36,014 nt of DNA, taken from positions 101,037-137,050 of the forward strand of contig CAYSWC010000001.1 in assembly GCA_964434715.1 (NCBI GenBank). Direction: 5' to 3'. The position numbers were made by a program, and so were the translations under genes. Positions 4,523-36,014 of this stretch are shown piece by piece. The notes under the pieces were generated by a model, which was not told the DNA's origin, searched no databases, and worked only from the letters and a program-made list of their open reading frames with translations. How positions within the stretch are numbered: the first letter of the stretch is position 1; each line of letters begins with the position of its first letter. Source of the DNA: an uncultured Candidatus Saccharibacteria bacterium. Lineage in GTDB: Bacteria; Patescibacteriota; Minisyncoccia; UBA6257; 1-14-0-10-40-38.

Positions 4523-5520
4523 AATATAATCTTTTTCTTGGTTATCGAATCCTTAATGGCCAAGGCCATTCTTAACACCTCCCGACCGGTACCGAAATCA
4601 ACGAGTGGTTTTTCTTTGCCTCGGATACAGCGAAGGAAATGCTTCAATTCTTCCAAAAACATGGTATTCCGTTCAAAGCCCTTTGACTCGCGCCTGATGC
4701 GGGGAACGGCTTTTTGTTTAAACGGCAAGAAGCTCAAGGTTTTATCTTGATAATCCCAAATCATTCGCCCCTTGGTTCCCACAACTTCAAACCGACGCTT
4801 GGGCGGTCTTTCCAGATAATCCATTGATAGAGTAGCAATCAAGCCGGATTTAAACTCAATGACTGCCTGTGCTAAATCCTCAACATCAATATCTAAATCG
4901 CTTTTACGACCACCAAAAGCAACAAGTCGTTTGGGTTTCCCAAAAAACCAATAGAGATAATCCAGCTCATGACTTTGGGTTAAAACCACGCCGCCGCCCA
5001 AATCATCTCTTGCCGCATAGGTTTTCCGGTAATCTTCCCAGGGGTGCCAATCGGGTAAGTATTCGCCGATTTCAGCGTGAGCGGAGACGGGCCTGCCGAT
5101 TTTACCGGTATCCAGCCATTGCTTCATTTTGCGGAGCAATGGGTGGAATCGAAAGTTATAACCGACGTAACCAACTAACCGTTTCTTCTTAGCTTCATCA
5201 ATTAATGTCTCTAATCCCTCCAGTCGGTGAGCAAGCGGTTTCTCGGTAAAAACATGCGCGCCGCTCTCAAGAGCGCGCCGGGCTATGGAGATATGTAAGG
5301 CGGTCGGATTGGTGATGATTACGGCATCGGGCTTGAGCGTGAGCGCCTTTTCTAAATCATAGAAAATCGTCGGCTGAAATTTCTTGATAAAGGCGGCGAT
5401 AAAATCCGGATTGGCGCCGCGGCCAGTGCGATAGACAAAAATATCGCCGGCGCCCAAGGCAAGAAGATTCCGGTAATGACGCTGCCCTATTGAACCAAGT
5501 CCGGTGATAAGAAATTTCAT
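4519..5520 (-). CDS. Gfo/Idh/MocA family NAD(P)-dependent oxidoreductase
   Basis: 333 aa. It has an N-terminal ITGLGSIGQRH Rossmann motif and the FTEKPLA signature. There are 4-nt overlaps at both ends. Confidence 0.88.
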   Translation of the reverse strand: MKFLITGLGSIGQRHYRNLLALGAGDIFVYRTGRGANPDFIAAFIKKFQPTIFYDLEKALTLKPDAVIITNPTALHISIARRALESGAHVFTEKPLAHRLEGLETLIDEAKKKRLVGYVGYNFRFHPLLRKMKQWLDTGKIGRPVSAHAEIGEYLPDWHPWEDYRKTYAARDDLGGGVVLTQSHELDYLYWFFGKPKRLVAFGGRKSDLDIDVEDLAQAVIEFKSGLIATLSMDYLERPPKRRFEVVGTKGRMIWDYQDKTLSFLPFKQKAVPRIRRESKGFERNTMFLEELKHFLRCIRGKEKPLVDFGTGREVLRMALAIKDSITKKKIIL

Positions 5521-25045: not shown

Positions 25046-26121
25046 GATTGTTTTAGCTTTTGTAAATAATCATCTAAAGTTGGCCAATATCTAAAAAAGG
25101 CATTCTGTTCTTTAATTATTTTTTCTCTGGCGATTTTGTTGACAATTAAATCTTCTAAAACTTCGGTTAGGACTTTTATGTTTCCGACTGGAATTACTTT
25201 CCCGATAGCTACTCCCACATCAGTCATTACTACTGGCAGGTCGGCGGCTGCCGCCTCTACCGCCGTGAGTCCATAACCTTCGTAATTAGAGGTGAGTAGC
25301 AATAAATCAGCGGTTTTGTAATAAGAAATCAAATCACTGCTCCAAGGCTCAAATTTTACACTATTCTGAAGTTCTAAGTTGTAAGTTGTAAGTTGTAAGT
25401 TTTTTATTTCCGGCCCATCTCCTACAATCAGTAATAAAGGATTTTTGATATTTGATATCGCTTCTATCACCATTCCAATATTTTTCTCGCGTGTCAAACG
25501 CGAAGCCATCAAAATGATAAAATCATGATTTGGATATTTTTTATGAAGATCTGTCTTGACGGGGGTGTTTTTGATTTTTTGAACATCAACAAAAATGGGA
25601 AGAATTGTAATTTTTGATCTTTGATCCCTGATCTTTGATCGCAAAGAGTCAGCGATTCTTTGCGAGACGACGCGGATGCCGTCGGCTTTGGGAATAAGCC
25701 ATTTGGCTAGAAGTACGCGCAGTTTATTTTTAATTGACTCGCGCCAAAAATACGGGCTTAAAAAATCAGTGTGAATCTGGATTTGAAGCGGTAGCTGAAA
25801 CTTGCGCTTAAGCAAATAACCGACCAAGCCGGTTTCGAAAGGGTCCTGGGCAGTAATAACTGACAACTTACGACTAACGACTAACGGCTTGCTAATTTTA
25901 TAGGCGTCCCGAAAATAAAAAAATTTGAATTTGCTGTTGGTAGGATAAATAAAAACATTATCCGTCAAAGTTGTTGGTTGTGAGTTGTTGGTTGTGAGTT
26001 TGTTTGTGTAAACAATAATATGCAACTCATCTGCTATGGTGCCGTAGTCTTTCATCCGTTCGCGCGCGGCCGAGTCGGTTTTAAAAATATTTTGATCGGT
26101 TGATAGCATTAAAACTCTCAT
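25012..26121 (-). CDS. GT4-family glycosyltransferase carrying four in-frame heptamer-repeat patches
   Basis: 369 aa. Motifs are ILMASRLTREKN, IVGDGPE and SNYEGYGLTAVEAAAADLPVVMTDVG. Its 3' end overlaps the next gene by 34 nt. Confidence 0.85.
   Translation of the reverse strand: MRVLMLSTDQNIFKTDSAARERMKDYGTIADELHIIVYTNKLTTNNSQPTTLTDNVFIYPTNSKFKFFYFRDAYKISKPLVVSRKLSVITAQDPFETGLVGYLLKRKFQLPLQIQIHTDFLSPYFWRESIKNKLRVLLAKWLIPKADGIRVVSQRIADSLRSKIRDQRSKITILPIFVDVQKIKNTPVKTDLHKKYPNHDFIILMASRLTREKNIGMVIEAISNIKNPLLLIVGDGPEIKNLQLTTYNLELQNSVKFEPWSSDLISYYKTADLLLLTSNYEGYGLTAVEAAAADLPVVMTDVGVAIGKVIPVGNIKVLTEVLEDLIVNKIAREKIIKEQNAFFRYWPTLDDYLQKLKQSWQNCCLSPKR
25367..25401. repeat. Heptanucleotide tandem repeat (NNaagtt x5; the last three units are perfect gtaagtt)
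   Basis: The sequence reads tgaagtt ctaagtt gtaagtt gtaagtt gtaagtt. It is in frame in GT4 25012-26121 (peptide NLQLTTYNLELQN). Confidence 0.85.
25614..25641. repeat. Heptanucleotide tandem repeat (ttgatcN x4, imperfect)
   Basis: The sequence reads ttgatct ttgatcc ctgatct ttgatcg. It is in frame (peptide RSKIRDQRSKI). Confidence 0.8.
25857..25891. repeat. Heptanucleotide-periodic repeat (core cgactaa x2 perfect)
   Basis: The sequence reads taactga caactta cgactaa cgactaa cggcttg. It is in frame (peptide KPLVVSRKLSV). Confidence 0.7.
25970..26008. repeat. 14-nt (2 x 7) tandem repeat gttgttggttgtga x2 plus a degenerate tail
   Basis: 25970-25983 and 25984-25997 are identical and are followed by gtttgtttgtg. 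It is in frame (peptide TNKLTTNNSQPTTL). Confidence 0.85.
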
Positions 26122-28427
26122 AAGATATTCTCGCTAAACAAATCGACTAATTGATTCGTAGTTTTTTCTATAGAAAATTCTTTAGCTCTAGCTTGGGCGT
26201 TTATAGAAAGCTTTTCTCTAAATTTTTGGTCGGAAGTAATTTTATTCACTGCCTTCAAAAACTCTTCTTTGTTGTCCGGCTCGATTAAAACGCCGTCTCT
26301 GTTATTGACGATTATTTCTGAAAGATTGCCTATACGCGTGGCAATCACAGGCATGCCGGCATTCATAGCCTCCACCACTTGGAAGGAGAAGCTTTCAAAA
26401 GATGTATTCAGGACAAAGATAGCGGCGTTTTTTAAATATTCCAAAAGCTCTCCTCGGGGAACTGCACCGACTAATTTAATTCGATCATTAACTCTTAACT
26501 TTTCACTTTTAACTTTTAACTTCTCTCTTTCCGGCCCGTCGCCAATTATCACCAAATGCCAGTCGGGCAAATCAACCATAAACTCTATAAGCTTATCAAA
26601 ACCTTTCCATGGCACTAGACGACCAGCAGAAACAATTCTTTTAACATCTGGCTGGGGTTTCCATTGAATATATCCGCCATAACCACCTATATTTAAATCT
26701 ACGCCGTTATAAACTGCCTTTACTTTTTCTGGTTTTCTCACCCACCCCCCCACTAACTTCTTAAAATAATGACTCGGTGTAATTATCAGCCGAGCTTGGT
26801 TTGCCACCCCACGCTGAATAAATCTTAAAAGCTCCGTTTTAGGGCCGTATTTTTTACTTTGAAAATCGTCAATTGGATCTTTAACACCAAATCTTTGGGC
26901 GGCCTGCTCCCAAGCGTAATCGCCGGCAATACGAATAAGAAATGGTTTCCCGGCTGTTTTGGCGGCCAGCATAGCAGGCAAACCTACACTCACGGGATCC
27001 TGCGCATAAACTAGATCGCTGCGGAAAGCCAAATACAATGCTTTGAAAAAGTAAACCAGGTGCCTTAGGCCTTTGGGCCAGATTTTCACCGCTCGGAACG
27101 GTAAAACCGAAACCAGAAATCCCCGTCTGACTAATTCGGTTTCGACAAGATGCGTGTAAGTAGCCGGCCCGCCGACTTCAGGAGGATACAGTCCGGTGGC
27201 AATCAAAATTCGGACTAATGGCTTATGACTAATAACTAATGACTTAAAAACTTTTCCCATTCTTTGAGCGACGCTGTCCCAAGAGTAATTTTCCAAGACC
27301 AGTTTTCTGCCGTTTTCTCCAAGCTTTTTCCTAAGGCCATCATTTTCCATAAGCGAAGAAATTTTATCGGCAAGATCTTTAGAGTCGTCAGCCATCGCAA
27401 AAAGTCCGGTTGTGCCATCTCTTAAAAAATCAGATATACCGCCTACGGCCGTACCAATAACAGGGAGTCCGGCGACCATTGCCTCTAGAAACGAACTGCC
27501 CAAGCCCTCGGAGCGCGAAGGCCGGACAAAAATATCGGCTTGAGATAAATATGCCGGGATCTTATCAGCCGGCACCTGTCCAAGAAATTCAATTCTGTCT
27601 TCAACTCTCAAATCTTTTACTAATTGTTTGAGTTTTTGTTCTTCGGGACCGCCGCCTACAATCAGAAGTTGGAAGTCAGAGGTCGGAGGTTGGATTTTCT
27701 TTAATTCCGCTACGGCTTGAATTAAAATATCAACGCCGTTTTTGTAAACCAATCTTGAGGTCGTAATAATAATTGCTTCTTGTTTATTTTTTTCGTATTT
27801 TCGCCCGCCTCGCCTCGACGAGCTTGACGAGTCGAGGCTTAGTACTTTTTCGTATTTCGTAGTATCAACTCCATTAGGCACCACTTCAATCGGGCACCTC
27901 GCGCCATGCCGTCTCGCAAAATCAGCCAAATAATTGCTAATCGTCTGAATATAATCGGCTTTCCGGAAAATCAGGCGCCAGAAAGGATAAAAAAGTCCGA
28001 CTCGATCCAAAATAAATTCTTCCGAATCCCCTTCTTGTAAAGTGAGGAGCAACGGAACTTTAGGGTGCCGCAGTTTAAATAAGAGAGCCGTGAGCCCGCC
28101 GTAGGCGGCCATTACCGCCCAAATAGCACTAAAGGGGGTTTGTCTATGAATTTTTTCCGCTTTTCTCCAAGCCCGGAAAATATAAAAAAACTTAGTCAAA
28201 CCTTGTCCGTAAAAATCGCCGCTCTTGCCTCGCCCAAGACGGAAGATGCTTAAATTTTCATCAACCTCTTCAAAATCAGACCACCGAGAATGAAATTTAT
28301 GAGTAAAGACTGAAAATCGGTAGTTTGGCAGCCTTTTGATTATCTCACGGAGCGCAATCTCGGCTCCGCCTTCAAAAGGACTATAAGCTAAAGTAAAAAC
28401 GCCGATTTGGGGAACTTTTTCGGTCAT
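26118..28427 (-). CDS. Fusion of two complete GT4 glycosyltransferase modules
   Basis: 769 aa. Module 1 has SRSEGLGSSFLEAMVAGLPVIGTAVGG. Module 2 starts at VRILIATGLYPPEVGGPATY, a typical GT4 N-terminus, and has TSFESFSFQVVEAMNAGMPVIATRIG. The junction lies at about residues 394-405. Confidence 0.85.
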   Translation of the reverse strand: MTEKVPQIGVFTLAYSPFEGGAEIALREIIKRLPNYRFSVFTHKFHSRWSDFEEVDENLSIFRLGRGKSGDFYGQGLTKFFYIFRAWRKAEKIHRQTPFSAIWAVMAAYGGLTALLFKLRHPKVPLLLTLQEGDSEEFILDRVGLFYPFWRLIFRKADYIQTISNYLADFARRHGARCPIEVVPNGVDTTKYEKVLSLDSSSSSRRGGRKYEKNKQEAIIITTSRLVYKNGVDILIQAVAELKKIQPPTSDFQLLIVGGGPEEQKLKQLVKDLRVEDRIEFLGQVPADKIPAYLSQADIFVRPSRSEGLGSSFLEAMVAGLPVIGTAVGGISDFLRDGTTGLFAMADDSKDLADKISSLMENDGLRKKLGENGRKLVLENYSWDSVAQRMGKVFKSLVISHKPLVRILIATGLYPPEVGGPATYTHLVETELVRRGFLVSVLPFRAVKIWPKGLRHLVYFFKALYLAFRSDLVYAQDPVSVGLPAMLAAKTAGKPFLIRIAGDYAWEQAAQRFGVKDPIDDFQSKKYGPKTELLRFIQRGVANQARLIITPSHYFKKLVGGWVRKPEKVKAVYNGVDLNIGGYGGYIQWKPQPDVKRIVSAGRLVPWKGFDKLIEFMVDLPDWHLVIIGDGPEREKLKVKSEKLRVNDRIKLVGAVPRGELLEYLKNAAIFVLNTSFESFSFQVVEAMNAGMPVIATRIGNLSEIIVNNRDGVLIEPDNKEEFLKAVNKITSDQKFREKLSINAQARAKEFSIEKTTNQLVDLFSENIL
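26494..26528. repeat. Heptanucleotide tandem repeat (tttaact-like x5)
   Basis: The sequence reads cttaact tttcact tttaact tttaact tctctct. It is in frame in module 2 of the fused GT4 (peptide EKLKVKSEKLRV). Confidence 0.8.
27213..27247. repeat. Heptanucleotide tandem repeat (gactaat-like x5) forming the linker between the two fused GT4 modules
   Basis: The sequence reads gactaat ggcttat gactaat aactaat gacttaa. It encodes KSLVISHKPLV at the module junction. Confidence 0.8.
27664..27698. repeat. Heptanucleotide-periodic repeat (agaagtt ggaagtc agaggtc ggaggtt ggatttt)
   Basis: It is in frame (peptide QPPTSDFQLL). It shares the 12-mer aagtcagaggtc (27673-27684) with 28803-28814 on the same DNA strand, although the host genes are on opposite strands. 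Confidence 0.8.
27789..27857. repeat. 57-nt in-frame insertion-like unit: 12-nt direct repeats flanking a 45-nt GC-rich hairpin segment
   Basis: tttttcgtattt occurs at 27789-27800 and again at 27846-27857. The intervening 45 nt have 29 G+C and contain the 8-bp inverted repeat gcctcgac (27812-27819) / gtcgaggc (27831-27838). The protein reads KYEK-VLSLDSSSSSRRGGR-KYEK. Confidence 0.75.
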
Positions 28428-28446: not shown

Positions 28447-29610
28447 ATGTCCAAAGCAAAGAAAAAAATATTATTTGTTATCACTCAAGGCAACTGGGGC
28501 GGAGCCCAGCGTTATGTTTTTGATCTCGCAACCAACTTAAACCAAGAGAAATTTGAGACTCAGGTGGCTTTCGGAAAAGCTCACCGAGGTGAGTTAATCG
28601 CTAGACTTGAAACGTTGGGAAAACCAGTCTATTCGCTTAAATATCTCAACCGTTCTTGGAATCCTTTTACCAACTGCCTCTTTATTGTGGAACTTTACCG
28701 GCTGATTAAAAAGTTATCACCGGATATTGTGCATTTCAATAGCACCAATGCCGGCGTCTTCGGCCCTTTAGCCGTTAAAATATATAATTTGTCAAAGGTC
28801 AAAAGTCAGAGGTCAAAAGTAGTCTATACCGCCCATGGCTTCGCCTTTAACGAGCCGGGCTGGCGGCGCCGAGCCGTTTTTATCTTAGCGGAGAAATTAG
28901 GAAGTTTTTTCCGGGATTTAACCATTTGCGTTTCCCAATTCGATCATGATTCAGCCCTCCGCCGCGGCATTGAGTATTCGAATAAGATGGCGATTGTTTA
29001 CAACGGCATTGATGCAAATAATTTTAAGACTTTACCGCGGGCCGAAGCACGCAAACTTTTCCCGTTAGTACCGGAAAACGCGCTGCTCATTGGTGTTATT
29101 AGCCAATTCTATAAAAATAAAGGTTTGCAATATCTTATCGAAGCAGCTCGCCCAATTGTAGAAACTCGCCCCAATGTTTTTTTCGCCATTATGGGCGGCG
29201 GTCCGGAACAAAAAAATCTGGAATTAAAAATTAAGAATTATGGACTGACAAATAAATTTTTTGTTCTGCCCTATCAGGAAAACGGCCGCAAGTATTTGAG
29301 CGCTTTTGATATTATTGCCGCGCCGTCAGTCAAAGAGGGTCTCCCCTATTTTTTGCTGGAGGCGGCTTTGGCTAAAAAAGCGATTGTGAGCACGACTGCT
29401 GGCGGCATTCCGGAAATCGTAAGGCACGGAGAAACCGGTCTTATTGTTGAACCGCATAAACCGCTCGCCTTAGCGGAAGCTTCAGAAAAATTCTTAAGCT
29501 CGGCAGCTTTAAGGAAAACCTTGGGAGAAAATGCTTATAACTTCGTGAGTCAGAATTTTCTGCTTGCTAAGATGATTGATGCAACGGCAAAACTTTATCG
29601 AGAAATCTAG
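28447..29610 (+). CDS. GT4-family glycosyltransferase
   Basis: 387 aa. Motifs are KILFVITQGNWGGAQRY, GVISQFYKNKG and PSVKEGLPYFLLEAALAKKAIVSTTAGGIPE. Confidence 0.85.
   Translation: MSKAKKKILFVITQGNWGGAQRYVFDLATNLNQEKFETQVAFGKAHRGELIARLETLGKPVYSLKYLNRSWNPFTNCLFIVELYRLIKKLSPDIVHFNSTNAGVFGPLAVKIYNLSKVKSQRSKVVYTAHGFAFNEPGWRRRAVFILAEKLGSFFRDLTICVSQFDHDSALRRGIEYSNKMAIVYNGIDANNFKTLPRAEARKLFPLVPENALLIGVISQFYKNKGLQYLIEAARPIVETRPNVFFAIMGGGPEQKNLELKIKNYGLTNKFFVLPYQENGRKYLSAFDIIAAPSVKEGLPYFLLEAALAKKAIVSTTAGGIPEIVRHGETGLIVEPHKPLALAEASEKFLSSAALRKTLGENAYNFVSQNFLLAKMIDATAKLYREI
28791..28825. repeat. Heptanucleotide tandem repeat (gtcaRaR x4 plus a degenerate unit)
   Basis: The sequence reads gtcaaag gtcaaaa gtcagag gtcaaaa gtagtct. 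It is in frame in the plus-strand GT4 (peptide SKVKSQRSKVV). Confidence 0.85.
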
Positions 29611-34279: not shown

Positions 34280-34581
34280 AATTTATTTTTGTGACTTTTT
34301 AACTAATTAATTTGTTAATGTTTATGACCTTTTTAATTGGGGAAAGCATCGACCGTAATTCGGCTTTCCTTTTTTGTTTCTTATGATTTTTGTATTCCTT
34401 CGACGGGCTTAGGAAATAAGTTACTGTCTGAGCAAAGTCGAAGACATACTTTTTATTTAGGGAAGGAGCTATCGACCTTACCGCTTTTCCCTCCTAAATC
34501 CTCGTGAGGCAAGAACTTAGGAGGAAATTGGTGTCGCTCTGCCGTAGGCAAAGAAAATCCCCGCTTAGAAGCGAGGCCAGG

Positions 34582-34703
34582 GGAGTAATCGCTAATAATG
34601 CTAATGCGGTTCGAAATAATGCGAATAAAATATTAGCATTATTTTGTCTCCCCTCGGGAGATCTCCCGTAGGGAGACCCATTCGCATTATTAGCGATTAC
34701 TCC
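34582..34703. repeat. Nested inverted-repeat element: a possible structured RNA in the surface-protein leader, or a MITE-like palindromic element
   Basis: The outer inverted repeat is a perfect 20 bp: ggagtaatcgctaataatgc (34582-34601) pairs with gcattattagcgattactcc (34684-34703), plus 4 more bp after one mismatch. Inside are a 9-bp hairpin (34614-34622 / 34636-34644) and two tandem 6-bp hairpins, tctccc-ctc-gggaga and tctccc-gta-gggaga (34647-34676). Confidence 0.7.
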
Positions 34704-34842
34704 GGACTGCTTAGCCTCACACTAAGCAATTACGATTATATCAAAGAATCCAAAAACCGGTGCGGGAACGCCTGTGAATAACTCGGGGAAAACTTACTTT
34801 CTTAAATCTTATAACGAAGCTAAGTTGAGTTTATTACAACTT

Positions 34843-34863
34843 GTCCCTAGTCCCTAGTCCCTA
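34843..34863. repeat. Perfect heptanucleotide tandem repeat gtcccta x3 (intergenic)
   Basis: It lies 9-29 nt downstream of the stop of the winged-helix gene and shows that the heptamer repeats are not confined to coding DNA. Confidence 0.9.
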
Positions 34864-34871
34864 TGGGCCTA

Positions 34872-35672
34872 TTAGATAACCCTTATCTTATAAAGCGTAG
34901 CTCGCCCCCCGCCAGATCGCTCAAGAAGGCCTTGATTACACAGGCGTTGGAGGTCATATCTTATGGTCCTGCCGCTAAAATCAGGAAAAGAAGCCACAAT
35001 TTCCCTAAAAGGCACTGGTTTATTGCCGGACTCACGGATTCGCTCCACAATTGCCGATTCCCGGTTTGCCGCATTAGCCCAATCTTCTAAAAGGTTTTTC
35101 TCGGCAACCAGCTTATTTACAACCTCATCAATTCCGACGCTTCGGTCGGAATCCCGACCTTTTGGCGTCGGGATTGCCGGATTATTGCCCGATTCTTTTG
35201 CAGGATTATTGCCGGATTTATCCTGATCCTGTCGAAGGATTGCAGGATTATTTCCGGATTCTTTTGCCGGTTCTTTGCCGACTTTGCCTGATTTAGCGAC
35301 TTTCCTTGCCGGTTTTACCGCCTCAAAAAGTGTTGCTGGCCTGGAAAAAATTGATTCAATACTTGGTATTTTCTCCAAATCAGGCAATGACAATTCGGCA
35401 ATTTGCCGGATTGCCGCATTTAAATTGCCTAATTCCTGAAGCAAAATATCGGCATTGACTGGCTCAATTTCATAGATAATCCTGCCGAATTTAATCATGC
35501 CCTCCAAGGTTGCCGAGGTCTTTGAAAATGCTGCAAAATCGCGCGTTGATACCTGCTCTAAGAGCTCAAAAGCCAAATCTTCCAGTTTGTGCCGGAATCT
35601 CGGACGCCGGGCATAGACCGATATTTTAATAAGAGCCAAACTGATTTCCTGGGCTTTTTGGTCAGCAAACAT
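34872..35672 (-). CDS. DNA-binding protein with a C-terminal DeoR-like winged-helix domain, a helical N-terminal domain and an internal ESGNNPA repeat linker
   Basis: 266 aa. The C-terminus is FREIVASFPDFSGRTIRYDLQRLCNQGLLERSGGGRATLYKI (S-x-x-TIR-x-DL-x-x-L ... GGG pattern). The middle is PAKESGNNPAILRQDQDKSGNNPAKESGNNPAI. No SD is visible, and TATGAT lies just upstream of the ATG. Confidence 0.62.
   Translation of the reverse strand: MFADQKAQEISLALIKISVYARRPRFRHKLEDLAFELLEQVSTRDFAAFSKTSATLEGMIKFGRIIYEIEPVNADILLQELGNLNAAIRQIAELSLPDLEKIPSIESIFSRPATLFEAVKPARKVAKSGKVGKEPAKESGNNPAILRQDQDKSGNNPAKESGNNPAIPTPKGRDSDRSVGIDEVVNKLVAEKNLLEDWANAANRESAIVERIRESGNKPVPFREIVASFPDFSGRTIRYDLQRLCNQGLLERSGGGRATLYKIRVI
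35171..35267. repeat. 31-nt direct repeat (3 mismatches) plus a partial middle copy inside the winged-helix gene
   Basis: The first copy is ggattgccggattattgcccgattcttttgc (35171-35201) and the second is ggattgcaggattatttccggattcttttgc (35237-35267), 66 nt apart. A partial copy lies at 35202-35219. They encode the ESGNNPA repeats. ttgcaggatt is the reverse complement of aatcctgcaa at 35794-35803. Confidence 0.8.
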
Positions 35673-35760
35673 ATACTAATCATAGTAAGAAATACGGCAA
35701 GGCTGGTCAATACCCCACAGCATTATTCGGAAAGAACCGTAATCCGGCAAAAAATCCTGT

Positions 35761-35790
35761 CACCCTACGGGTGATCTCCCGAAGGGAGAC
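35761..35790. repeat. GC-rich double-hairpin module flanked by 10-nt direct repeats
   Basis: It consists of caccc-tac-gggtg followed by tctccc-gaa-gggaga. aaaaatcctg occurs at 35750-35759 and again at 35791-35800. The 18-mer gatctcccgaagggagac matches 34660-34677 (gatctcccgtagggagac) with one mismatch. Confidence 0.75.
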
Positions 35791-35805
35791 AAAAATCCTG
35801 CAAGG

Positions 35806-35938
35806 AGGTAGCACAAAGTTACATGAGGTTGCGCGATGTTACAAGAGGTTACGAGAGGTTACGGGAAACCTCCTGCAACCTTGTGTAACCTTAATGTAAC
35901 CACATGTAACCTCCTATAACCTAAACCTAATGTAACCT
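35806..35938. promoter_or_regulatory. Phased array of GGTTAC-like repeats: six direct units with exact 10-nt spacing followed by seven inverted units (an imperfect palindrome of about 130 nt)
   Basis: The forward units start at 35806, 35816, 35826, 35836, 35846 and 35856 (aggtagc, aagttac, aggttgc, atgttac, aggttac, aggttac). The reverse units (gcaacc, gtaacc x3, ataacc, aaacc, gtaacc) start at 35875, 35885, 35896, 35906, 35916, 35923 and 35932. The central 6-bp stem is gaggtt/aacctc. The array lies 134-266 nt upstream of the winged-helix gene start. Confidence 0.7.
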
Positions 35939-36014
35939 TCTTGGCTTATATGCTCCACCTGCTGGTCATAAAAATCAGGATAATTAAGACTATTAGTATA
36001 GAGACGTCGGTCAA

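Follow-up and report, generated by a model that had tools for sequence, protein, structure and literature searches.

Here, we show that a 133-base stretch near the end of a 36,014-nucleotide (nt) window of groundwater-metagenome DNA is a GGTTAC decamer array with two mirror-image arms, that it has no counterpart at the orthologous loci, and that arrays of the same design recur in unrelated phyla. The window is the whole stretch analysed, taken from contig CAYSWC010000001.1 of an uncultured Candidatus Saccharibacteria bacterium, by its homologues a member of the Patescibacteria. We read the array, with a probability of about 40%, as a DNA-level repeat element made of phased sites for a trans-acting protein. 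A first-pass annotation, which worked from the sequence of the window, had noticed the array and offered three identities for it: an operator or iteron array of the adjacent winged-helix protein, a replication or partition site, or a structured RNA. Its underlying concept, oriented protein-binding units arrayed in helical phase, is still the best reading, and the three identities fare differently in the light of the evidence below.

The region analysed covers positions 35805–35941 (coordinates refer to the plus strand of the window unless stated otherwise) and is the sole copy of the array in the window. The left arm (35805–35864, no strand assigned) consists of six 10-nt units with a GGTTAC-type core, which read RA-GGTTAC-RN on the plus strand. 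Five of its hexamers, starting at 35817, 35827, 35837, 35847 and 35857, differ from GGTTAC at one position at most, the first (GGTAGC at 35807) differs at two, and all steps are exactly 10 nt. The description of this arm as six RRGTTRC units at 10-nt steps thus stands as to spacing, but only four of the six units fit that consensus exactly. The right arm (35865–35941, no strand assigned) holds eight inverted units of GTAACC type, with starts at 35865, 35875, 35885, 35896, 35906, 35916 and 35932 and an extra short unit near 35922; its spacing is 10–11 nt save at the outer end, and the intervals reported before (10, 11, 10, 10, 7 and 9 nt) were reproduced. The centre described between the arms is present, but the GAAACC found there, at 35865, is itself a degenerate unit, so the right arm counts eight units and the layout becomes 6 + 8 around a centre of a few nucleotides. 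Tandem Repeats Finder reports arrays of period 10 and period 20 in both arms. With one mismatch allowed, GTTACNNNNNGTTAC matches seven times in the 36-kb window, always within 35818–35920; shuffled sequences gave a mean of 1.05 matches, and none of 100 shuffles reached seven. The array is far beyond chance expectation, and it contains 6 of the 21 exact GGTTAC sites in the window. On the GGTTAC strand, the spacers (ACAA, ATGA, GCGA, AAGA, GAGA and GGGA, plus ATTA, AGGA, ATGT, ACAA and AGGA) are purine-rich and poor in C. The arms are 73–92% complementary in several registers; the folding energy of the minus-strand RNA is −56.5 kcal/mol, where shuffles give −37.1 ± 3.9 (z −5.0), and that of the single-stranded DNA is −23.7 kcal/mol (z −3.9), in keeping with the imperfect reverse complementarity and hairpin potential noted at first pass. 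No promoter-like site lies within the array. DNA reads of the source metagenome contain no variants in unit number, and their depth over the array is that of a single-copy sequence.

The far side of the array was read from L002, a 53.9-kb contig that encodes a 255-aa variant of the winged-helix protein, is identical to the window over 34689–36014, and extends 9.6 kb beyond it. Gene content was surveyed over the resulting 46 kb, using Pfam scans of those open reading frames (ORFs) of the window of at least 90 amino acids (aa) that were taken as genes, and precomputed domains of L002. Read along the minus strand, the gene for an HtrA-type protease comes first, then a 529-aa gene, clpB, a 236-aa membrane-protein gene, the array and the 266-aa winged-helix gene. 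Extension beyond 36014, as advised in the first-pass annotation, reveals a clpB operon that ends in the gene of a multi-pass membrane protein with no Pfam family (3′ end at 35946–36014, minus strand; the rest was read from L002). Its stop codon, TAA at 35946–35948, lies 8 nt from the array. Because the ORF entering from beyond the window ends there, the array is intergenic and not coding, which disposes of the objection that it might belong to a gene reaching in from outside. It forms part of the untranslated 3′ end of the clpB operon, and the next promoter follows about 95 nt downstream.

Is the array the operator of its neighbor? The gene in question (34872–35672, minus strand) encodes a conserved N-terminal domain (YEIEPVN), a linker of NPA repeats and a C-terminal DeoR-type winged helix. 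The array does lie 134–266 nt upstream of it, as had been stated, phased repeats suit winged-helix proteins, and a copy of a motif characteristic of this gene family, TTGCAGGATT, abuts the array. The orthologues speak against such a link. Among 76 orthologous loci with usable upstream DNA, none has three or more phased GGTTAC-type units upstream of the gene. In six close relatives inspected by eye, the order clpB, membrane gene, winged-helix gene and large surface protein is kept without an array, and the spacer of 115–435 nt is filled with other elements: AACTGAC or AACTGAT heptads right after the membrane-gene stop, in the slot that the array takes here, in L203 (3566–3612) and L205 (1735–1785), AATTTCC-type repeats in L211, and various hairpins. 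The first-pass annotation had itself held that absence from orthologous loci would speak against its operator reading, and by that standard the reading fails. The family of the 266-aa protein is confined to Patescibacteria, with homologues that are Paceibacteria/Harrisonbacteria-like and an NPA-rich linker that varies; the recognition-helix residues S233, R235, T236, R238, Y239 and D240 are invariant throughout it, so that a new, lineage-specific operator is unlikely. Same-design arrays also occur in genomes and at loci that lack this gene.

A different motif, TTGC(A/C)G(G)AT(T) or TTGCMGGATT, is common to the orthologous loci, and 18 of its 26 matches in the window fall within 35023–35803. 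Over the 76 loci, TTGCMGNAT occurs at a density of 4.5 per kb in the upstream 200 nt and at one of 7.35 per kb in the gene, compared with 0.20 per kb elsewhere, which amounts to a 20- to 35-fold enrichment at winged-helix genes and their promoters; at 23 loci, a copy lies no more than 60 nt from the start. Upstream of the gene the window has three copies on the minus strand: the distal one that abuts the array (TTGCAGGATT, 35794–35803), a second one (TTGCCGGATT, 35741–35750) and a third (TTGCCGTATT, 35691–35700) between the hexamers of a promoter-like site, TTGACC-17-TACTAT (35682–35710, minus strand). The motif is likewise placed between the −35 and −10 boxes in L203, L205, L207 and L005, and the TTGCCGTATT copy is, from this comparison of sequences, likely the real operator of the winged-helix protein. 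The array, by contrast, does not overlap the promoter: it ends upstream of the −35 box, separated from it by about 95 nt that contain two hairpins. We conclude from the sequence comparison that the array is not part of the conserved regulation of the neighboring winged-helix gene, and consider a role as operator or iteron array of that protein very improbable.

Arrays of this kind are found elsewhere. A scan of one genome per species for the layout GGTTAC-N4-GGTTAC-N10–40-GTAACC-N4-GTAACC returned 30 loci, where about 0.1 would be expected by chance and the same layout built on the reversed motif returned two; viral contigs yielded 4 loci and metagenome contigs 88. The matches fall into three kinds. 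The first are small arrangements of 2 + 2 or 3 + 3 sites that resemble ordinary operators, among them one that is conserved across six Thermus species and one in Nocardia, at the divergent promoter of an HxlR-family regulator. The second lie directly beside replication modules of phages or integrated elements in Firmicutes, Planctomycetota and Neisseria. Their neighbors are Prim-Pol/PriCT_1 with a VapE-like helicase (L239, L245/L247), Prim-Pol/PriCT_1 (L230, with a 3 + 4 convergent array), DUF927 with a Cch helix-turn-helix (HTH) domain (L100 and a Neisseria element, L223–L226/L236/L244) and a D5-type helicase (L153). Judged by these neighbors, the second kind are probable replication origins that share one hexamer; they are shorter and looser than the third kind, with longer centers. 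The third kind has the design of the window array: 4–6 + 4–6 units surround a center that ranges from a few nt to about 24 nt, and the step between units is exactly 10 nt in 126 of 159 cases. Defined as at least four GGTTAC-type units at steps of 10–11 nt that face at least three inverted units across a short center, this family comprises the window array and about 25 other members.

The long arrays are carried by Patescibacteria (L221, between rpsD and rpoA), Omnitrophota (L215, between rpsL and rpsG, and L240), Planctomycetota (L228, the same as L326, and L105), Porphyromonadaceae (L234, L237) and many unbinned contigs. Several genomes have more than one: in the unclassified high-GC genome CAZOYW01, arrays stand on about ten contigs among the matches listed, for instance between accD and folC, and multiple copies are also present in CAYGOU01 (at least five contigs, three of them with a single arm) and JBBTIZ01 (at least two). 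Across the long arrays the core GTTAC is kept at 96–100%, and the purine-rich spacers drift; the unit consensus is RA-GGTTAC-A-R-A, and in a position matrix of 159 units C occurs only 7–13 times per spacer position. Some spacer sequence of the window array, e.g. GTAACCTCTTGTAAC...ATC, is found again in the right arms of L326, L288 and L303. The family also shares a placement. In about 20 of the 27 long arrays, the array edge lies 0–17 nt from the stop of an ORF of 100 aa or more, as at the window array with its 8 nt, and clear downstream genes start 9–22 nt after the other edge. Among the flanks examined there was no clear long array between divergent genes, and comparison of the flanking genes revealed no neighbor common to the long-array loci. 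This position at gene 3′ ends favors an element that is tolerated or that acts at the transcript level. One Bacteroidetes genome has a dispersed single-arm repeat of its own that contains the same core; there, L092, L123 and L149 each contain five exact 11-nt repeats of GGTTACTATAA; L135 is shorter and less regular, and the flanks of L092, L123 and L135 are alike.

Could the arrays have grown without any function? They might be neutral by-products, in which a seed was expanded by replication slippage and then inverted or duplicated, functionless as DNA and as RNA alike. These genomes are indeed rich in short tandem repeats after stop codons (TAGGGAC three times over, or the AACTGAC/AACTGAT heptads of L203 and L205), and the slot after the membrane-gene stop is filled differently in each relative. 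Moreover, in the unselected sample provided by the matches listed from a genome scan for three direct GGTTAC units, the direct arrays number 65, 32, 14 and 5 with 3, 4, 5 and 6 units, a roughly geometric fall, and the control motif, too, yielded two palindromic arrays. One of the control matches, in a member of the Saprospiraceae (L242, 6700–6800), is a convergent array of about 6 + 5 GTCATTG-type units adjoining a gene that by eye resembles glutamyl-tRNA synthetase, so palindromic tandem arrays of other unit sequences do exist. Against a neutral origin, since direct arrays decay geometrically in length, the long convergent arrays with their 4–6 units per arm form a separate population and are not a geometric tail. 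Phyla that are unrelated have the same unit, phase and orientation, with many copies per genome, the core stays conserved at 96–100% as the spacers drift, GGTTAC gives 30 loci against 2 for the control, and partner arms among the matches listed of the unselected sample are convergent in four cases and divergent in none. Taken together, a neutral by-product seems to us rather unlikely.

The structured RNA proposed at first pass is possible, although nothing in our comparisons lends it positive support. At the RNA level, the 3′ untranslated region of the clpB/membrane-gene operon would fold into a hairpin of about 60 bp, which might protect the mRNA 3′ end, attenuate read-through into the next gene or serve as a processing site, e.g. 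for RNase III. The strength of the fold (z −5.0) fits such a role, as do the start of the array 8 nt after the stop and the terminator-like hairpin with T-run that follows, the location of family members at gene 3′ ends or between co-transcribed genes with none found between divergent ones, arms of nearly equal unit number, and purine-rich spacers opposite pyrimidine-rich ones, for which pairing is possible in any register. There is also a precedent: the short tandemly repeated repetitive (STRR) sequences of filamentous cyanobacteria form hairpins between hupS and hupL, for which roles in transcript stability or translational coupling have been proposed (PMC2670836).

The comparison of arrays points the other way. 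Among 17 non-redundant long arrays, the spacer identity between arms is 0.51 in the symmetric register and 0.49–0.52 in registers one or two units off, and units of one and the same arm reach 0.53; as these values are nearly equal, the palindrome is a by-product of the unit consensus and not the object of register-specific complementarity. In 15 arrays of known transcription direction, departures from the core in the sense RNA are G-U-compatible in 13 cases and of A-C type in 12, small counts in which no wobble excess is visible. Arrays with a single arm of about five units, which are unable to pair, occur in the same genomes (L141, L107, L176). T-runs do not follow the arrays consistently. 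Rfam gave no match at gathering score; the best permissive E-values over the array were 3.2 and 3.7, for unrelated families. A hairpin role would in addition leave the recurrence of the hexamer and the 10-nt step across phyla unexplained. On the absence of register-specific complementarity and of a wobble bias, together with the single-arm arrays, a DNA-level element is favored, and an RNA-level element is in our view unlikely, if less so than the other alternatives.

Direct hexamer repeats with a period of 10–11 nt are also familiar from the binding sites of OmpR/PhoB-type response regulators, and the array could be a host regulatory region for such a protein, perhaps the partner of a histidine kinase encoded 8–10 kb away (L002 1–1639). 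The array unit presumably resembles OmpR half-sites such as GGTTACATAT. The TGTAAC-N4/5-TGTAAC unit fits the WalR/VicR consensus TGTWAH-N5-TGTWAH (PMC4168254). However, known sites comprise 2–6 half-sites in promoters, whereas the array presents 13–14 in two opposed arms, far above what is known for such regulators, and lies after a stop codon, before a terminator-like hairpin and about 95 nt upstream of the nearest promoter-like site. No response-regulator gene was seen in the 46 kb. Family members are multi-copy and stand inside ribosomal-protein operons, and the array is missing in relatives that keep the same genes. We regard a host regulatory region of this type as improbable.

Opposed sets of phased repeats recall the low-affinity DnaA arrays of oriC. 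A replication or partition-related site was among the first-pass proposals, and a chromosomal origin or terminus or a partition centromere would be sites of this kind. In parC of plasmid R1, two sets of five helically phased iterons are bound cooperatively on one face of the DNA (PMC2241845), and it is in having two phased sets of short iterons that parC/ParR and the array are alike. Unlike in parC, the arms of the window array are inverted, chromosomal and without par genes. The iteron sets of parC are 11 bp in unit length, directly oriented, flank the promoter and lie next to parM and parR. The surroundings of the array do not bear out a replication or partition role. Gene orientation and GC skew continue unchanged through it: the genes are co-directional for about 9 kb upstream and 35 kb downstream, and cumulative GC skew, the check suggested for an origin or terminus, is negative and falls steadily on both sides without a turning point. 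None of dnaA, dnaN, rep, parA/B or parM/R occurs in the 46 kb, the units are by inspection not TTATCCACA-like as DnaA boxes would be, BLAST of the array found no similar annotated plasmid or phage record, and elsewhere the family is multi-copy per genome. We give this proposal next to no credence.

Other candidates were considered and dropped. Integron attC sites have the opposite orientation and only 2 + 2 sites; DNA uptake sequences do not fit, as GGTTAC is not enriched outside the array; and Tus/Ter fork traps, FtsK-orienting polar sequences (KOPS), RNA sponges of TRAP/CsrA type, rut sites and mimicry of the 16S 3′ end do not account for the design. Target arrays of IS608 type (TTAC) and motif arrays of BREX or Type III restriction-modification systems are further, purely speculative candidates.

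How might a DNA-level element with these properties work? The array belongs to a dispersed family of DNA repeats that spans several phyla, each member having two convergent runs of a 10-nt unit. In the reading that we favor, insertion or local growth within this lineage would have brought the array into the spacer that separates the clpB-operon stop from the hairpins and promoter of the following gene. It would act as double-stranded DNA, and a sequence-specific protein, supplied in trans, would occupy each unit with one subunit. Owing to the 10-nt phase, all sites of one arm would lie on the same face of the helix, and the two arms would load protein head to head, giving a symmetric complex of about 2 × 50 bp. 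Because shorter and looser arrays of the same hexamer lie beside primase-helicase modules, a mobile-element protein is the leading candidate for the binder, which might be the origin-binding HTH of a mobile-element helicase, some recombinase or a host regulator of OmpR/WalR type. At this locus the array is probably a passenger. As a transcribed stretch at the tail of the clpB operon, it can form a long, imperfect hairpin ahead of the terminator-like one, and this may have a side effect on 3′-end stability or read-through.

Several observations weigh against this reading. No binder is encoded in the 46 kb surveyed for Pfam families and domains around the array. The search for other GGTTAC arrays in the source genome, as suggested at first pass, turned up none in the 46 kb, and the one copy in this fragment, with its single-copy read depth, lends no support to dispersal within the source genome. 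The flanks of 17 arrays show neither target-site duplications nor shared termini, so that a cut-and-paste mechanism is unsupported. Protein roadblocks inside ribosomal-protein operons, as they would arise in L215 and L221, would be costly. The excess of the family rests on a scan with one control motif, and the 30 layout matches include non-independent groups (six from Thermus, five from Neisseria and nine from one genome) and sites of at least three kinds. As for the RNA level, the register test leaves room for selection on the hairpin because purine-rich and pyrimidine-rich spacers pair in any register, and the near-equal unit numbers of the two arms fit a hairpin or cruciform constraint as well.

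A broader proposition, which we put forward tentatively and rather doubt, is that the long convergent arrays constitute an undescribed, cross-phylum class of dispersed elements with a dedicated DNA-binding partner, spread between Patescibacteria, Omnitrophota, Planctomycetota and Bacteroidota that share a habitat. Within that proposition, they might be orphan origin-like or decoy arrays for primase-helicase initiators, or the ends of a non-autonomous mobile element. In the open-access literature, a scope insufficient to prove novelty, we found no description of a GGTTAC decamer family.

Among known systems, the array is by analogy closest in kind to the cyanobacterial STRR sequences, next to palindromes of the repetitive extragenic palindromic/bacterial interspersed mosaic element (REP/BIME) or miniature inverted-repeat transposable element (MITE) type, and closest in design to iteron arrays. 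Like the array, STRR sequences are short intergenic tandem units with the potential to form a hairpin between co-directional genes, and they are dispersed in the genome. However, their units are 7 bp long and of other sequence, whereas the array has a 10-nt unit with a near-invariant GGTTAC core, and the array family has a defined convergent design of 4–6 + 4–6 units and occurs in several non-cyanobacterial phyla. STRR sequences also come in many copies per genome, in contrast to the one copy of the window array in 46 kb, multiple copies having been seen in other carriers only. Heptad arrays of STRR type occupy the slot of the array in the close relatives L203 and L205. REP/BIME, enterobacterial repetitive intergenic consensus (ERIC) and MITE elements share with the array their imperfect palindromes of about 100–130 nt, the location at gene 3′ ends or inside operons, multiple copies in some genomes and variable occurrence, yet they lack an internal 10-nt periodicity; as for MITEs in particular, the arms of the arrays are inverted, but the flanks of the 17 arrays have no target-site duplication or shared termini. 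The origin iterons of P4-alpha, D5, VapE and Cch type resemble the array in their short repeats in both orientations and at helical spacing (the P4 origin repeats are 8 bp), but these are adjacent to an initiator gene, for Rep or a primase-helicase, and none is near the window array. The array is best filed as a new variant of the dispersed intergenic tandem-repeat palindromes, one with a specific unit.

The surroundings of the array contain further repeats. Between it and the promoter lie two adjacent 15-nt tetraloop hairpins (35760–35789, minus strand; on the plus strand tcaccc-tacg-ggtga and tctccc-gaag-ggaga). The second looks terminator-like because of the T-run that follows it on the minus strand, and was scored as such. 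The pair has a second copy at 34647–34676 and was also seen in L010 and L203; it is multi-copy, as its depth in the source run is 64–285 compared with 15–20 for the flanks. The copy upstream of the gene is flanked by a 10-nt direct repeat, AAAAATCCTG (35750–35759 and 35791–35800), and two assemblies break at the hairpin pair. In the source run, a contig of 269 nt (depth 5.8, about 84% identical) passes directly from 35710 to 35960 and omits the array and the hairpins, 249 nt in all, and the 8-mer GCTGGTCA is present at both edges of this skip; the contig could represent a related strain without the insert or a chance alignment.

Closer to the winged-helix gene, the −10-like box TACTAT ends 9 nt before the ATG, and the mRNA may be leaderless or nearly so. 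This ATG, at 35672, is supported by alignment of the N-termini, and the gene caller had picked a TTG start 11 codons downstream. Within the gene, the TTGCMGGATT copies spell the codons Asn-Pro-Ala-Ile of the low-complexity linker, which is thus encoded by tandem copies of the likely operator motif. A hairpin-forming stretch in the linker-coding part (35134–35172, aatcccgacgcttcggtcggaatcccgacc) is a repeated element within the coding region, with raised depth and with other contigs of the same metagenomes diverging there. Directly after the stop of the gene, the heptad TAGGGAC is repeated three times (34843–34863). Farther downstream, at 34575–34705, is a palindromic element of about 110 nt (CGGAGTAATCGCKAATAATGCKAATG ... 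ATTCGCATTATTAGCGATTACTCC) without an Rfam family match; it is nearly identical in L203, where it occurs twice (4795–4925 and 5020–5150) and the orthologous protein is only 54% identical, and differing small hairpins are inserted in the middle of the element.

The rest of the window is occupied by a surface-glycan cluster (NeuB, DegT, many glycosyltransferases and YfhO-like proteins) and a gene for a 1272-aa protein with a peptidoglycan-binding domain. Pfam scans found no Rep, Par, transposase, integrase or other DNA-binding gene in this remainder, and no tRNA or tmRNA genes were found. Inside three glycosyltransferase ORFs, Tandem Repeats Finder reports heptanucleotide repeats of 3–5 copies, at 25369–25401, 25440–25458, 25613–25640, 25866–25886, 25969–26000, 26488–26530, 27213–27244, 28791–28820 and 29222–29240. 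Five of them are in one 369-aa gene, and three affect the same conserved GT1 helix in paralogues. Such repeats may serve as slipped-strand contingency sites for phase variation of the surface-glycan cluster.

In conclusion, these results dispel the attractive but mistaken notion of a regulatory connection between the array and the neighboring regulator, and direct attention to TTGCMGGATT as the likely real operator of a conserved regulator of Patescibacteria. They also have a practical side, as such arrays break metagenome assemblies: one 1-kb contig that carries the 266-aa gene terminates inside the window array. Phyla that are unrelated share this highly ordered repeat design, which also stands within essential operons and can reach many copies per genome. 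If there is no binder, the arrays would still be a clear example of tandem-repeat palindromes colonizing operon spacers. To our knowledge, almost no cis-acting elements have been characterized in uncultured groundwater lineages, and if a specific binder exists, the arrays would provide a new handle on mobile-element biology and horizontal exchange in these organisms.

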